From an uncultured Bacteroidales bacterium (GTDB lineage: Bacteria > Bacteroidota > Bacteroidia > Bacteroidales > UBA12077), in NCBI GenBank assembly GCA_964450375.1, contig CAYVEW010000005.1, positions 1 through 62,802 of the forward strand: a stretch of DNA of 62,802 bases, given 5' to 3'. Of the stretch, positions 40,005 to 47,258 are shown one piece after another; within the stretch, counting starts at the first letter, position 1; every line of letters starts with the position of its first letter. Under the pieces are notes generated by a model. It saw only the letters and a list, made by a program, of their open reading frames with translations. It was not told where the DNA came from and did no database searches. A program made the position numbers and the translations under genes.

Positions 40005-41255
40005 TTATATGTCCAATAAAATTTCATCAGCACTTTTTTCTCCTAAAAGCATTTTATAAGGCGATTCCAGTAGTTCTTTTAATTTAACAAGAAATCCCAC
40101 AGAATCTTTACCATCAATCGTTCTATGGTCGTATGATAAAGCTATATACATCATGGGTCTGATTTCTACTTTGCCATTTACTGCAATGGGACGTTCCTGA
40201 ATGTTGTGCATTCCTAAAATTCCCGATTGTGGTGGGTTTAAAATAGGCGTAGAAAGTAATGATCCGAATACACCACCATTGGTTATGGTGAATGTACCAC
40301 CCGTTAAATCATCCAGTGAGATTTTTCCTGATCGACCCTTATCGGCTAATCGTTTTATCTCAATTTCCAGTTCGGCTAAATTCTTAGTTTCTGCATTTCG
40401 AACAACAGGAACCATTAATCCTTTGGGTGTTTGAACTGCGATTCCTATATCTGCATATTCAGGATATATAATATCTTCACCATCGATTTGTGAGTTTACC
40501 GAAGGGAAAGCTTTTAAAGCAATGGTAACCGCTTTTGTAAAGAACGACATAAAACCTAGCTTGGTTCCATGCTTTTCTACAAATTGTTTCTGGAACTTAG
40601 ATCTTAAATTCATTATTTCAGTCATATCTACTTCGTTAAAAGTAGTTAGCATGGCTGTTTCGTTTTTTACCGAAACTAAACGCTCGCTTAATTTCTTGCG
40701 AAGTTGTGACATTTTCTTACGTTCAATTTCTCGGCTTGCTTCAGTTCTTTGTTCTATGTTATGTTTTGTTGTCTTTTGAGAAAGAACTTGCTCGACTTCG
40801 GTTCTTCCAATACGCTTTAGCCCATTGATAACATCATCTAAATTGATATTATTTTCGCTCATAAGCTTTTGTGCTACTGGTGAAATTTTAATATTTTTAT
40901 ATTCCTCTGATTTATCAACTGGAATATTTTCTTTTTGCTCTGTTTTTTGTGGCTTTTCTTTTGATTCGTTCTGTTCCGACTTTTCTTCTGTAGGTTTAAC
41001 TTCTTTTTTCTCTGGAGCTTTAGCACTTTCGTCAATCTTACAAGCAATAGCACCAACTTTTATGGTTTCACCAGCTTGGGCAAGAATTTCAATGGTGCCA
41101 CTTTCAGATGCCATCAGTGGCAGTGTGGCTTTATCAGATTCTATCTCAGCAATTTCCTGATCTTTTTCTACATAATCGCCATTATCGACCAGCCAGTTCG
41201 ATATTTCTACTTCGGTTATTGATTCTCCGGGACTTGGTATTTTTATTTCAATCAT
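40005..41255 (-). CDS. sucB: 2-oxoglutarate dehydrogenase E2 (dihydrolipoamide succinyltransferase)
   Basis: Lipoyl motif [39 protein letters not shown] and [10 protein letters not shown]. Confidence 0.97.
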
Positions 41256-41311
41256 AATCTAGTTTAAAGTTTAAAGTTCAATGTTTCAAATCTGGAATCT
41301 GAAATCTGAAA
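41256..41311. repeat. Degenerate heptamer array (8 units) filling the sucA-sucB gap
   Basis: Minus strand TTTCAGA TTTCAGA TTCCAGA TTTGAAA CATTGAA CTTTAAA CTTTAAA CTAGATT. Confidence 0.75.
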
Positions 41312-44113
41312 TCAAAGATACGTATGTTGTTCTCTGATTTCAATTCGTTCACTTCCTTTTTCGCATTGTAAACCACAATATTTGTTTTTCAGCTCGCAGG
41401 TACATTTCCTGAAAATCTTACCAATAATTTCTTCCTGGCCTAAAACATGTAATTTATTTAACCCCACAGCCGGACTTCCACTTGCCAGGCGAGCAACTAC
41501 CTGCAAATTATTCATTTTCATTTTTTCATTTACATAGCGCCATGCTCCCATGTTTTCGGGTTCTTCCTGTGCCCAAATCCACCTTCGGGTATTTGGATAT
41601 TTCTTAATAATTTCCTGTATTTGTTTTTCGGGCCAGGGGTGTAGCTGTTCAATCCTTACCAGTGCTATATCGCGTGCATTAAATTCTTCTTTTTTGGCCA
41701 GTAAATCGTAATAAATTTTTCCGGTACAAAAAACAACTCTTCTCACTTCATTTTGATCTACCTGATTATCATCAATAACTTCCTGAAAACGGCCAGTTGA
41801 TAAATCGTTTAAAGATGAAGTGCACTTCGGATGACGAAGCAGGCTTTTGGGAGTAAAAATAATTAAAGGAATGGTAAAATCGCGATGCACTTGTCGGCGC
41901 AAAACATGAAAAAAGTTTGCGGGTGTGGTGGCATTCACAACTTGCATATTATTATTGGCACAAAGTGATAGAAAACGTTCCATCCGTGCACTGGAGTGTT
42001 CCGGTCCCTGACCTTCGTAACCGTGTGGAAGAAACAAGGTCAAGCCATTCATTAATCCCCACTTTTCTTCGGCCGAACTAATGTATTGATCAATAATAAC
42101 CTGGGCAACATTGTTAAAATCACCAAACTGGGCTTCCCAAATGGTTAAACCGTTTGGAACCGATAAAGCATAACCATATTCAAAACCCAATACACCGTAT
42201 TCTGATAACGGCGAATTAAATACATGAAACGGAGCCTGATCTTCGCTCACATGTTTTAAAGGAATGTATTTTTGGTCGGTATCTTCTATGGTTAAAGTCG
42301 AATGTCGGTGCGAAAAAGTACCACGTTCTGAATCCTGCCCGCTTAATCTCACCGGATAACCTTCGGTAACCAGGCTGCCATAAGCAAGCAACTCAGCCAT
42401 TGCCCAGTCGAGTTTCTCGTTTTTAATCATCTCGTTACGATCGTCCAGCAATTTTTGTGCTTTTTTAAAGATCTTTAAATCTTTTGGCAAGTGATTCAAT
42501 TTATGAGCAATTGCTTTTAATAAGATTTTTTCTACACCAGTTTCCGGCGATACGTCAAACTCAGCATCTTCGGCATGGTGATATTTCTGCCAATCTTCAA
42601 TTAAAAATTGCTTGATATGAAGTTTCTCGGATTTTTTTGCTATTTCAAGTTTTTCTTCGAGCAACTGATTGTATTCTTTTTCGATGCTTTTTATATCATC
42701 TTTGGAGTAGATCTTTTCATCCATTAAGAAACTCGCATAAATATCTCTAGGGTTTGGATGCTTACTTATTTCTTTATATAACAATGGTTGGGTAAATCGA
42801 GGTTCGTCGCCTTCGTTATGGCCAAACTTACGATAACAAAGAATATCGATAAAAACATCGGTATGAAACGTAAATCGGTACTCCATAGCCAAACGAATGG
42901 TATAAATCAGTGCTTCCACATCATCTCCATTTACATGGAAAATAGGTGCTTTTATCACTTTGCCAATATCGGTGCAATATGTGCTCGAACGGGCATCCAG
43001 GTAATTGGTGGTAAAGCCAACCTGGTTGTTAATTACCAAATGAATGGTTCCTCCTGTTCGGTATCCTTTTAATTGTGACATCTGGATGGTTTCATACACA
43101 ACACCCTGGCTTGCGATGGCAGCATCGCCATGAATAATTATAGGAGCCAGCTTATCGTAATTGTGTTGATATTTATCCCATATTTTTGCTTTGGCAATTC
43201 CTTGCACAATGGGGCCAACCGTTTCTAAATGCGATGGATTCGGTGCTAAATTTAGCCTTACCTTTTTGCCACTATCCGTGCTCACGGTATTGCCATAACC
43301 CAGGTGATATTTTACATCTCCTAAGGCAATTTCTTCTTCGTATTCTTCTCCTAGAAATTCAGCAAAAATATCTTCTACCGGTTTTTCCAAAATATTGGCA
43401 AGCACATTTAAACGCCCTCGGTGCGACATTCCGATGATGAATTCTTCAATACCTAATTCAGCCCCTTTTTCAATAACAGCATCCAGCGCAGGGATTAAAG
43501 ACTCAGCTCCTTCGAGCGAGAATCGCTTTTGTCCGACGAATTTTTTATGTATAAAATTTTCGAAACCAACAGCTTGTTTTAGGTGATGATAAATATGTTT
43601 GCGCTCTTTATCGGTAAAAGAAGGAATGTTTTTTACCGGTTCCATTTTTTGCTGTAGCCAGCTTACAATTTCAGGATTTCGAATAAACATGTATTCAGCT
43701 CCAATAGATTGACAGTAAGTTGTTTCCAGGTGTTCTATGATTTTTTCCAAAGTGGCAGGGCCTATCCCTATTTTTTTTCCGGCCTGGAAGCTTTTCTTCA
43801 GATCTTCTTTGGTGAGTCCGTAGTTCTCAATGGCCAAAGTTGGTGAATAAGTGCGTCTGCTCCGAACAGGGTTTGTTTTGGTAAAAAGATGCCCGCGTTT
43901 TCGGTATCCTTCAATCAGGTTAATTACTTTAAATTCATTGTCGAATAGTTCGTCGGAAGAATTACCGACAGGAAAATTTTTTTGAGCAAATTCAAAGCCT
44001 TCAAAAAACTTTTGCCATTGTGAATCTACTGAGTCCGGATCCGATTGATATTGTTCGTATAATTTATCTATTGAGTCGATTTCTGAATTACCAATAAAAG
44101 AGAATTTGTCCAT
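41312..44113 (-). CDS. sucA: 2-oxoglutarate dehydrogenase E1
   Basis: KRFSLEGAES, GMSHRGRLN, GDVKYHLG, NPSHLE, HGDAAIASQG, WEAQFGDF and PHGYEGQGPEHSS motifs. Confidence 0.98.
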   Translation of the reverse strand: MDKFSFIGNSEIDSIDKLYEQYQSDPDSVDSQWQKFFEGFEFAQKNFPVGNSSDELFDNEFKVINLIEGYRKRGHLFTKTNPVRSRRTYSPTLAIENYGLTKEDLKKSFQAGKKIGIGPATLEKIIEHLETTYCQSIGAEYMFIRNPEIVSWLQQKMEPVKNIPSFTDKERKHIYHHLKQAVGFENFIHKKFVGQKRFSLEGAESLIPALDAVIEKGAELGIEEFIIGMSHRGRLNVLANILEKPVEDIFAEFLGEEYEEEIALGDVKYHLGYGNTVSTDSGKKVRLNLAPNPSHLETVGPIVQGIAKAKIWDKYQHNYDKLAPIIIHGDAAIASQGVVYETIQMSQLKGYRTGGTIHLVINNQVGFTTNYLDARSSTYCTDIGKVIKAPIFHVNGDDVEALIYTIRLAMEYRFTFHTDVFIDILCYRKFGHNEGDEPRFTQPLLYKEISKHPNPRDIYASFLMDEKIYSKDDIKSIEKEYNQLLEEKLEIAKKSEKLHIKQFLIEDWQKYHHAEDAEFDVSPETGVEKILLKAIAHKLNHLPKDLKIFKKAQKLLDDRNEMIKNEKLDWAMAELLAYGSLVTEGYPVRLSGQDSERGTFSHRHSTLTIEDTDQKYIPLKHVSEDQAPFHVFNSPLSEYGVLGFEYGYALSVPNGLTIWEAQFGDFNNVAQVIIDQYISSAEEKWGLMNGLTLFLPHGYEGQGPEHSSARMERFLSLCANNNMQVVNATTPANFFHVLRRQVHRDFTIPLIIFTPKSLLRHPKCTSSLNDLSTGRFQEVIDDNQVDQNEVRRVVFCTGKIYYDLLAKKEEFNARDIALVRIEQLHPWPEKQIQEIIKKYPNTRRWIWAQEEPENMGAWRYVNEKMKMNNLQVVARLASGSPAVGLNKLHVLGQEEIIGKIFRKCTCELKNKYCGLQCEKGSERIEIREQHTYL

Positions 44114-44359: not shown

Positions 44360-45481
44360 ATGATTATAGGAATATTAAAAGAACCGGATTTTGACAAGCG
44401 TGTTTCGATCTTACCTGAAAATATTGAGAAACTTGTTCAGCTAAAAGTATCTGTTGAAGTTGAAAGTGATGCAGGTATTAATGCATTTTATTCTAATCAG
44501 GATTATGTGGATGTGGGGGCAAAAATAGCAGATAGAGAAGAGATACTATCCCAAGCCGATTTGATTATAAGTATTAATCCACTGGACAAGAAGGAATATT
44601 CGCTTTTAAAACCAAAGCAAGCTGTTTTAACAGCTTTTAGTCCGCTTATAAATAAAGAACAGGTAGAAGATTTTTTAAGGGGCGACATAACATCTTTTAG
44701 TATGGATATGGTTCCCCGAACCACCAGGGCTCAATCGATGGATATATTATCGTCGATGGCAACAGTAGCAGGATATAAAGCGGTGTTGTTAGCAGCGAAT
44801 CATTTGCCATCATTTTTTCCGATGTTTATGACCGCTGCCGGTACAATCCGACCATCGAAAGTATTGGTTCTCGGAGCAGGAGTGGCAGGTTTACAGGCAA
44901 TTGCTACTGCAAAAAAGTTAGGGGCTGTGGTTGAAGCTTTTGACGTTCGACCTGCGGTAAAGGAAGAAGTACAAAGTTTAGGTGGTAAATTTATTGAAGT
45001 GGAAGGCGCAAAAGACGATGCTGCTGCAGGCGGATATGCAGTTGAGCAAACCGAGGAGTATAAACAGAAACAACAACAGCTTATACAGGATCATGTAAAA
45101 AAGGCAAATGTGGTAATTACTACAGCACAAATTCCCGGACGAAAGGCTCCGGTTTTAATCACTAAAAACACAGTAGAGAATATGTTGCCGGGTTCCGTTA
45201 TTGTTGATTTAGCTGCATCTACCGGTGGAAACTGTGAGCTAACAAAAAATAACGAAATTGTAGAAATTAACCAGATAAAGATTATCGGGAACTCAAATTT
45301 GTCAAGCGAAATCCCTGCCGATGCCAGTAAAATGTATGGAAACAATATCATCAACTTTTTAAAACTAATCATTAATGATGAGGGAAATTTAAAGTTGGAT
45401 TTTACCGATGAGATTGTTGCAGGAACTTGTATTACACATCATAAAGAGATTATTAACGAACGTGTTAAATCAACAAATTAA
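44360..45481 (+). CDS. pntA: NAD(P) transhydrogenase alpha subunit, part 1 (domain I)
   Basis: RAQSMDILSSM, MTAAGTI, VLGAGVAGLQA and DLAASTGGNC motifs. Confidence 0.96.
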   Translation: MIIGILKEPDFDKRVSILPENIEKLVQLKVSVEVESDAGINAFYSNQDYVDVGAKIADREEILSQADLIISINPLDKKEYSLLKPKQAVLTAFSPLINKEQVEDFLRGDITSFSMDMVPRTTRAQSMDILSSMATVAGYKAVLLAANHLPSFFPMFMTAAGTIRPSKVLVLGAGVAGLQAIATAKKLGAVVEAFDVRPAVKEEVQSLGGKFIEVEGAKDDAAAGGYAVEQTEEYKQKQQQLIQDHVKKANVVITTAQIPGRKAPVLITKNTVENMLPGSVIVDLAASTGGNCELTKNNEIVEINQIKIIGNSNLSSEIPADASKMYGNNIINFLKLIINDEGNLKLDFTDEIVAGTCITHHKEIINERVKSTN

Positions 45482-45487
45482 ATAAAA

Positions 45488-45796
45488 ATGGAAGCAATTC
45501 TTGAATTTATATACGTAAATGCCGAAGCAATTTTTATTGTTATACTATCAGTATTTTTAGGCATTGAAGTAATATCGCATGTGCCTGCGGTGTTGCATAC
45601 TCCCTTAATGTCTGGTGCCAATGCAATTCACGGAGTAGTTATTATAGGGGCTATTATTGTATTGGGTCATGCAGAAACAACACTTAATCTTATTCTGGGA
45701 TTTTTAGCTGTTTTTCTTGGAACGCTTAATGTAGTCGGGGGATTTGTGGTAACCGACCGAATGTTAGATATGTTTAAAAAGAAACCTAAAAAATAA
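45488..45796 (+). CDS. NAD(P) transhydrogenase alpha subunit, part 2 (membrane)
   Basis: LHTPLMSGANAIHG and NVVGGFVVTDRMLDMFK motifs. Confidence 0.96.
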   Translation: MEAILEFIYVNAEAIFIVILSVFLGIEVISHVPAVLHTPLMSGANAIHGVVIIGAIIVLGHAETTLNLILGFLAVFLGTLNVVGGFVVTDRMLDMFKKKPKK

Positions 45797-45803
45797 CTAA
45801 GCC

Positions 45804-47258
45804 ATGGATAAGATTATTGAGTTTTCAAAACACGTTCAGTTTACATTTGGCGATTCAGTTCTGGAAATTATCTACCTGATTGCCTCGATATTATTTATTT
45901 TAGGTTTAAAAATGCTGAGTCATCCCGATTCGGCAAAACGTGGCAACATCTGGGCCGCAGCTGGAATGATTATAGCAATTGTTGGTACTCTTTTTTTACA
46001 CCGGCAAAATGGCAGGGAAATAGGTAATTTCGGATACATTTTTGCGGCCATTGCTTTGGGAACGGTTTTTGGCTGGATTGTTGCTCGAAGAGTAAAAATG
46101 ACCAAAATGCCCGAACTTGTTTCGTTTTTTAACGGAATGGGTGGTGCTGCAGCTGCATTAATTTCCTTAATGGAATTCCCACATATTAACAAACAACTTT
46201 TATTGGAGCATGGAATGCTTAACTGGCAAGCTTTAGTTATTTTCCTGGGCTTAGTTATTGGTAGTGTCTCTTTTGCTGGTAGCCTGATTGCTTATGGCAA
46301 GCTTGATGGTAAAATTAAGGATGTCAGATCGAAAATATTACGTTACATCAATATTTTATTACTATTGATTATTGTAGGTTTTATTGCTTATTTAATGACT
46401 CGTGGCCAGGTGAATCCTTTGGATTTGGAGCCATTAATCTACATTCTGTTGGCTATTTCGCTGGTATACGGAGTTCTCTTTGTTCTGCCTATTGGAGGTG
46501 CTGATATGCCGGTGGTAATATCGCTATTAAATTCGTTTACAGGAGTAGCAGCAGCTATGGGTGGATTCTTATATGATAACCTCGTAATGTTAACGGGTGG
46601 TATATTGGTTGGATCGGCAGGAACCATTTTAACCGTTCTGATGTGTAAAGCAATGAACCGATCATTATTCAATGTAATTATTGGTGCTTTTGGCGGAGGT
46701 GGCGAAGCAATCGAATCGGAGCAAGGATCAATTAAGGAAGTATCAATAACGGATGCATCCATTTTATTGAGTTACTCGCAGAAGGTAATGATTGTTCCGG
46801 GTTACGGACTGGCAGTTGCCCAGGCTCAACATTTGGCTTTTGAATTAGATAAGTTATTGTCGGAAAAAGGTGTTGATGTTAAATATGCTATTCATCCTGT
46901 AGCCGGACGAATGCCAGGGCACATGAATGTTCTTTTGGCTGAAGCTGATGTGCCTTACGAGAAACTTCTGGAAAGTGACGAAGCAAATGGTGAGATGGAA
47001 AATGTTGATGTGGTTGTTGTGATCGGAGCCAATGATGTGGTAAATCCGGCTGCCGAAAACGATCCGACAAGTCCGATTTATGGAATGCCTATTGTAAAAG
47101 CCCTGAAAGCCAAAAATATTATTGTTATGAAACGCGGAATGGGTAAAGGATATGCTGCAATAGAAAATAATCTGTTCTATCACGATAAAACGCGGATGCT
47201 ATTCGGAAATGCAAAAGACAGCTTACAGAAAATTGTTAATGAAGTAAAGAATTTATAA
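45804..47258 (+). CDS. pntB: NAD(P) transhydrogenase beta subunit
   Basis: MPELVSFFNGMGG, IGGADMPVVIS, VPGYGLAVAQAQH, HPVAGRMPGHMN and GANDVVNP motifs. Confidence 0.98.
   Translation: MDKIIEFSKHVQFTFGDSVLEIIYLIASILFILGLKMLSHPDSAKRGNIWAAAGMIIAIVGTLFLHRQNGREIGNFGYIFAAIALGTVFGWIVARRVKMTKMPELVSFFNGMGGAAAALISLMEFPHINKQLLLEHGMLNWQALVIFLGLVIGSVSFAGSLIAYGKLDGKIKDVRSKILRYINILLLLIIVGFIAYLMTRGQVNPLDLEPLIYILLAISLVYGVLFVLPIGGADMPVVISLLNSFTGVAAAMGGFLYDNLVMLTGGILVGSAGTILTVLMCKAMNRSLFNVIIGAFGGGGEAIESEQGSIKEVSITDASILLSYSQKVMIVPGYGLAVAQAQHLAFELDKLLSEKGVDVKYAIHPVAGRMPGHMNVLLAEADVPYEKLLESDEANGEMENVDVVVVIGANDVVNPAAENDPTSPIYGMPIVKALKAKNIIVMKRGMGKGYAAIENNLFYHDKTRMLFGNAKDSLQKIVNEVKNL

Follow-up and report, generated by a model that had tools for sequence, protein, structure and literature searches.

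The 2-oxoglutarate dehydrogenase E1 component (E1o, SucA) encoded in the 62,802-nucleotide stretch of Bacteroidales DNA analysed in this study (hereafter the window) carries four closely spaced cysteines beyond the point at which this enzyme usually ends, which raises the question of whether the tail is a functional addition to a familiar enzyme and, if so, what the cysteines are for. Central metabolism is controlled in part at 2-oxoglutarate dehydrogenase (OGDH), whose redox regulation has been much studied in mitochondria. We know of no E1o, however, in which a dedicated Cys4 site has been reported.

The SucA protein and its C-terminal tail

The minus-strand ORF (Table 1) translates into a protein of 933 residues, followed by a stop codon, with the C-terminus ...ASGSPAVGLNKLHVLGQEEIIGKIFRKCTCELKNKYCGLQCEKGSERIEIREQHTYL*. 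The protein is a canonical E1o, with all four Pfam domains present in the order 2-oxogl_dehyd_N, E1_dh, Transket_pyr and OxoGdeHyase_C, scores of 1223 and 1055 bits against the NCBIfam models NF006914 and TIGR00239 (cut-offs of 764 and 770, respectively), and an alignment of residues 6–898 with E. coli SucA (PDB 2jgd) at E 7e-248 and ∼45% identity. The operon partner for E2o is also present, with sucB starting 56 bp downstream of sucA. The 56-bp spacer between the two genes (window 41256–41311) contains tandem 7-mers right after the sucA stop codon, the first aatctga-like and the following ones tttaaag-like. On the other side of the operon, a three-gene pntAB-type NAD(P) transhydrogenase (AlaDh_PNT, PNTB_4TM and PNTB; window 44360–47258, plus strand) is divergent from sucAB across 246 bp.

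Table 1. Positions in the window of sucA, the parts of its C-terminus and the neighbouring sucB.
Feature	Window coordinates	Strand	Basis
sucA, 2-oxoglutarate dehydrogenase E1 component	41312..44113	-	Pfam, NCBIfam, 2jgd match, AF2 model against E1o structures
Last E1o core helix, residues 886–901; end point of tailless SucA	41411..41458	-	DSSP on full-length AF2 model; end of E. coli alignment at 898
Lineage-specific C-terminal tail, residues 902–933	41315..41410	-	No Pfam, NCBIfam or PDB sequence coverage; kept in orthologues
Cys4 cluster C904-x-C906-x6-C913-x3-C917, putative metal knuckle	41363..41404	-	Cys invariance, codon mix, AF2
sucB, E2o dihydrolipoamide succinyltransferase	40005..41255	-	Pfam Biotin_lipoyl and 2-oxoacid_dh

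Past the SucA core, the protein continues for ∼29–30 extra residues. The alignment with E. coli SucA ends at query residue 898, which corresponds to E. coli residue 927 of 933 and bears out the statement in the preliminary description that SucA of the E. coli type ends shortly after the corresponding helix. The Pfam domain OxoGdeHyase_C ends at query residue 901 and the NCBIfam E1o models at 900–902, while the window protein runs to residue 933. The tail holds the motif C904-x-C906-x6-C913-x3-C917, within FRKCTCELKNKYCGLQCEKG. The preliminary description had reported such a C-x-C-x6-C-x3-C extension after the E1 end at positions 41312–41420, which comprise the stop codon and residues 899–933, and both the strings it quoted and the spacing agree with the translation.

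Among the 12,662 ORF segments of 60 aa or longer given by six-frame translation of the 4.04-Mb genome, the same cysteine spacing occurs in three, namely SucA and two that lie in implausible frames. A chance cysteine pattern is therefore ruled out, since SucA is the sole match in a real gene and more than 100 orthologues keep the pattern.

The full-length AF2 model has a mean pLDDT of 85 and matches solved E1o chains with Z of 44–49 over ∼810 residues; the structural matches in the PDB are to E1o only, and stop at residues ∼902–920. Beyond the last core helix, DSSP assigns beta bridges at residues 903 and 912 and a three-residue helix at 914–916, between C913 and C917, and at a pLDDT of ∼80 the tail is predicted to form a hairpin followed by a short helical turn. 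In blocks of ten residues the pLDDT of the tail is 81, 80 and 73 in the full-length model, whereas the block values are 79, 70, 55 and 47 when the C-terminal domain is folded alone, which hints weakly that the distal tail may lean on the other domains.

Conservation, range and origin of the tail

A search with residues 880–933 returned 171 proteins, all of E1o length or E1o fragments and mostly from Bacteroidales MAGs, and the four cysteines are present in all but one of the 120 clusters listed from this search. Across 83 full-length homologues, with identities of 60–86%, the invariant residues are F901, C904, C906, Y912, C913, L915, C917 and G920. The tail is present in every genome of the same genus for which the SucA C-terminus was read. 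Both TGT and TGC are common at each of the four cysteine codons among 130 distinct tail DNAs, from which it follows that the residue is kept, rather than the DNA.

A degenerate DNA pattern for CxC-x5-YCGLQC was also scanned over 185,579 species, with one genome each, and gave at least 119 matches. Among the matches listed, 116 lie in a SucA ORF, 30–44 codons ahead of its stop, and the other three are chance matches in tiny ORFs. At least 116 named Bacteroidales and Marinilabiliales-type genomes with the tail were recovered in this way, including Anaerophaga thermohalophila, Marinifilum fragile, several Carboxylicivirga, Labilibaculum euxinus, Perlabentimonas gracilis and Plebeiibacterium marinum, as well as MAGs labelled Tenuifilaceae, Salinivirgaceae and Marinilabiliaceae; Anaerophaga, Marinifilum, Carboxylicivirga and Labilibaculum are cultured. 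The preliminary description had named two outcomes that would speak against a functional tail, namely cysteines that vary among orthologues and a stop codon lost in this strain only. Neither was observed, as the four cysteines are conserved in orthologues, and the presence of the tail in congeners, in named genomes and across the order rules out a strain-specific lost stop.

In a survey of 301 genomes of the order, each at least 90% complete, 141 yielded a SucA C-terminal domain. Approximately 129 of the 141 genes align without a stop through the last cysteine position and ∼12 end earlier, tail presence being judged here by alignment coverage as a proxy and the C-termini being read for 20 of the most divergent genes. 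Thirteen of these 20 have a second type of tail with four cysteines (type B), six are tailless, and one has only a CxC remnant. Type B tails typically read F-[GRE]-x-C-x-C-x6-C-[KRQN]-M-x-C, with EC[KR]MxC in the place of the YCGLQC of type A, and they keep the CxC-x6-Cx3C spacing of type A, with Cx2C as the first pair in 2 of the 13. They are only 21–32% identical to the tail of the window protein, and when 33 diverse tails of the two types are aligned, K899 and the four cysteines are the only invariant residues. Each type has a distal segment of its own, which is G-x-S-R-x-E-I-L-K-Q-H-x-Y in type A and C-I-G-N-x-W-x-S-F in many type B tails.

Departures from the pattern were also seen. The exception among the 120 clusters, P0031, has Tyr at the second cysteine (C906), and P0128, a 259-aa fragment, has Tyr at the fourth (C917); both are metagenome proteins with type A tails, and these variants may reflect errors in sequencing or a site that has been knocked out naturally. 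A SucA from the tailless clade (L196, G687:C7:27240-30687) ends in ...EYCTCKSNKA, with the first CxC pair only, and this terminus looks like the truncated remnant of a Cys4 tail.

Outside the order, the 28 SucA loci inspected in other orders of the class have no cysteine motif and end 10–35 residues past the conserved SPA-x-G. A maximum-likelihood tree of 65 full-length SucA, from which the tail columns had been removed beforehand and in which the other orders served as the outgroup by assumption, places the SucA of the order in a group apart from those of other orders (SH-aLRT 98). Type A forms one group (support 91), with type B on other deep branches, so that tails occur on both sides of the deepest splits within the order, and the tailless lineages are nested among the tailed ones. 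The pattern is thus that of a single origin with few losses, for which the simplest reading would be one gain at the base of the SucA of the order, followed by three to four losses. The tailless relatives show neither a relic of the tail past the stop codon nor a split small ORF, and sucB directly follows sucA. Since ∼12 of the 141 SucA genes in the order are tailless and sucAB is kept, the tail is accessory to catalysis and dispensable for it, with a role that may be stabilising, docking or regulatory.

The tail is restricted to the SucA of this one order. A search of 1.84 billion representative proteins with a profile built from 33 tails gave 28 matches at E up to 0.001, of which 24 are SucA C-termini, mostly fragments at contig ends. 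The four matches outside SucA (P0123, P0141, P0145 and P0150) were rejected as Cys-rich or as repeat or low-complexity artefacts. The module was found in no other protein by the genome-wide regex, the DNA pattern (at least 119 matches listed; 185,579 species) or the profile search of the 1.84 billion proteins. Nor did the tail match anything in NCBIfam, in the ESM Atlas, in a sequence profile search of the PDB or in Pfam at E up to 10, and the last two of these searches gave no similarity to any known zinc-finger family. A literature search returned no description of a Cys4 tail, and a paper on mammalian OGDHc is silent on the E1o C-terminus. On these sequence comparisons, the tail appears to be a SucA-specific Cys4 module, unannotated and ancestral to one order, a new addition to a known enzyme.

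A different departure from the usual SucA was seen in other classes of the same phylum, where SucA-like ORFs of ∼1,205–1,270 aa occur (for example L197:189-3806 in G211:C1 and L198:249-3929 in G203:C1). Their domain order is 2-oxogl_dehyd_N, 2-oxoacid_dh (E2 catalytic), E1_dh, Transket_pyr and OxoGdeHyase_C, which is that of the OdhA/Kgd-type two-in-one fusions, a form described as actinobacterial (PMC10415282). There is no WhiB gene in five of the fusion-bearing genomes, which argues that these are not Actinomycetota, and in family f39 the long fusion form is present in all 61 of 61 genomes.

Nature of the four-cysteine site

The tail is probably an order-wide Cys4 metal-binding knuckle on a canonical E1o, in which one metal ion, most likely Zn(II), pins the tail to the enzyme surface; the binding of a metal, its identity as zinc and a function in structure or docking are what we infer from the pattern of conservation and from the predicted fold. 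Four invariant cysteines lying close together in a terminal peptide that otherwise diverges freely are characteristic of a small metal site. The proposal in the preliminary description of a Zn- or Fe-S-binding, redox-sensing appendage that controls TCA flux therefore survives in part: four invariant cysteines at fixed spacing, in tails otherwise 21–32% identical, are best read as a metal-binding Cys4 appendage, a reading that the comparisons support well, while redox sensing belongs to the less probable readings considered below.

Of the possible metal sites, a Zn(Cys)4 knuckle is the most likely given what is usual for cytoplasmic bacterial enzymes. Four conserved cysteines in two close pairs, as in such knuckles, were found in both the 83- and the 33-sequence alignments. 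Variation in ligand spacing, such as Cx2C for CxC, is typical of metal knuckles, and the change from CxC to CxxC in some type B tails, together with the predicted hairpin and helical turn, fits a zinc knuckle. On the other hand, Cx3C is not the commonest half-site of zinc knuckles, the pLDDT of the tail is moderate and falls in the isolated C-terminal domain, the tail resembles no known zinc-finger family in the Pfam and PDB profile searches, ∼12 of the 141 SucA genes of the order do without it, and P0031 and P0128 have Tyr in place of a cysteine, all of which count against this reading.

In the arrangement proposed here, the chain would pass from the last core helix into a short hairpin with C904 and C906, and then into a helical turn on which C913 and C917 lie. 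One metal ion, most probably Zn(II), would be chelated by the four thiolates, and this would fasten the C-terminal tail, with its conserved distal segment, to the surface of the enzyme. It is speculation that the site might, in addition, be labile to oxidants and so switch OGDH activity.

Alternative readings and the closest known systems

A doubtful alternative is that the four cysteines bind an Fe-S cluster, either [2Fe-2S] or [4Fe-4S], and that this serves as an O2 or redox sensor gating OGDH in low-oxygen bacteria. The closest likeness is to CDGSH/NEET proteins, with which the tail shares a CxC...C-x3-ligand layout and a second pair at the start of a helix (the helical turn of the AF2 model), the CDGSH [2Fe-2S] motif being CxC-x8-C-x3-H within a 17-residue consensus of hydrophobic-CXCXX(S/T)XXXP-hydrophobic-CDG(S/T/A)H (PMC3174974). 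The sequence of the tail (C-T-C-E-L-K-N-K-Y-C-G-L-Q-C) is, however, not that of a CDGSH domain, as it has a spacer of 6 and not 8, lacks the Ser/Thr, the Pro and the CDG(S/T/A)H residues, and has four cysteine ligands, the fourth ligand being Cys. It is also too short for the NEET fold, and has no Pfam match to zf-CDGSH or to any Fe-S family at E up to 10.

The gene content of the host agrees better with such a sensor. The window genome encodes cytochrome bd and four 2-oxoacid:ferredoxin oxidoreductase-type genes, and no gene of the heme-copper oxidase family (COX1 family / NOR) was found in its 523-contig assembly, which appears to be a low-oxygen make-up and would make a switch between OGDH and the ferredoxin-linked enzymes physiologically sensible. 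Across the order, however, the presence of the tail is unlinked to oxidase gene content: 82 of the 129 tailed genomes have the heme-copper oxidase family, as do 9 of the 12 tailless ones, so that the family does not discriminate between them, and there is as yet no comparative support for an oxygen-linked role. The presence of SucA itself does accompany this family, which occurs in 91 of the 141 SucA-positive genomes of the order against 39 of the 160 that are SucA-negative, in statistics that ignore kinship. A COX1-family gene is present in two congeners (G003 and G006) and absent from the window genome (G000); either members of the genus differ in respiratory make-up, or the gene is missing from the 523-contig assembly.

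Less probable again is a thiol or Zn-thiolate redox switch, proposed by analogy, in which oxidants would convert the four cysteines into two disulfides, with release of zinc if bound, so that the tail would unfold and the activity or assembly of E1o would be altered. The model for this is Hsp33, which senses oxidants with four conserved cysteines, in a CXC and a CXXC pair, that form a C-terminal Zn(Cys)4 centre whose single zinc is released on oxidation (PMC8282892). The tail shares with the Hsp33 switch domain the four conserved cysteines, the CxC half-site and a position near the C-terminus, but Hsp33 is a chaperone and SucA an enzyme, the second half-site of the tail is Cx3C and not CxxC, its spacer is 6 residues and not ∼30, and the Pfam and PDB sequence profile searches gave no similarity or homology between the two, so that the tail is not a member of the Hsp33 redox-switch domain. 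Many Zn(Cys)4 sites are, moreover, purely structural. Such a switch would nevertheless be compatible with the metal knuckle, rather than exclusive of it.

The last possibility, that the extension is neutral or artefactual and without function (whether through loss of a stop codon and read-through or through a wrongly called gene end), may seem to gain from the tailless SucA that occur in intact sucAB operons within the order, but is refuted by conservation deep in the order, the invariant cysteines with their mixed synonymous codons, the two diverged and internally conserved tail types, and the lack of any tail relic past the stop in tailless relatives.

Whichever reading holds, roughly nine in ten SucA genes of an entire bacterial order carry a Cys4 module that is invisible to Pfam and NCBIfam. 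If it is only structural, the gain is a modest one for annotation, in the form of a new small domain. It is unlikely that the tail provides E1o with a metal centre labile to oxidants or O2, whether a Zn-thiolate switch or an Fe-S cluster, that redox-gates the NADH-producing OGDH in low-oxygen Bacteroidales in which ferredoxin-linked 2-oxoacid oxidoreductases are also encoded; were a redox-labile centre present, this SucA would be the first E1 of any 2-oxoacid dehydrogenase to contain a redox sensor of its own, and a redox-active tail would explain the choice between NAD-linked and ferredoxin-linked oxidation of 2-oxoglutarate in microaerotolerant Bacteroidales. The order has cultured, tractable species, in A. 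thermohalophila, M. fragile, Carboxylicivirga, Labilibaculum and Perlabentimonas, and the natural tailless relatives and two diverged tail types are ready-made controls, possibly joined by the P0031 and P0128 variants.

For the metal knuckle preferred here, the enzyme itself offers the first comparison. E. coli SucA (2jgd) and that of Vibrio vulnificus (6km9) have the four-domain architecture and the downstream sucB of the window protein, but E. coli SucA stops 6 residues past the point from which the window protein runs for ∼30 more, with four cysteines, and none of the solved E1o structures has a metal site at the position of the tail. A housekeeping enzyme with a structural Cys4 metal site in certain lineages is nonetheless familiar from the LID domain of adenylate kinase in Gram-positives and anaerobes. 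As would be the case for the SucA tail, that site is small, occurs in some lineages of a universal enzyme, is dispensable elsewhere and lies outside the active site, but it is found inside a mobile domain and is built from CxxC pairs, whereas the SucA tail is a terminal appendage with CxC and Cx3C pairs.
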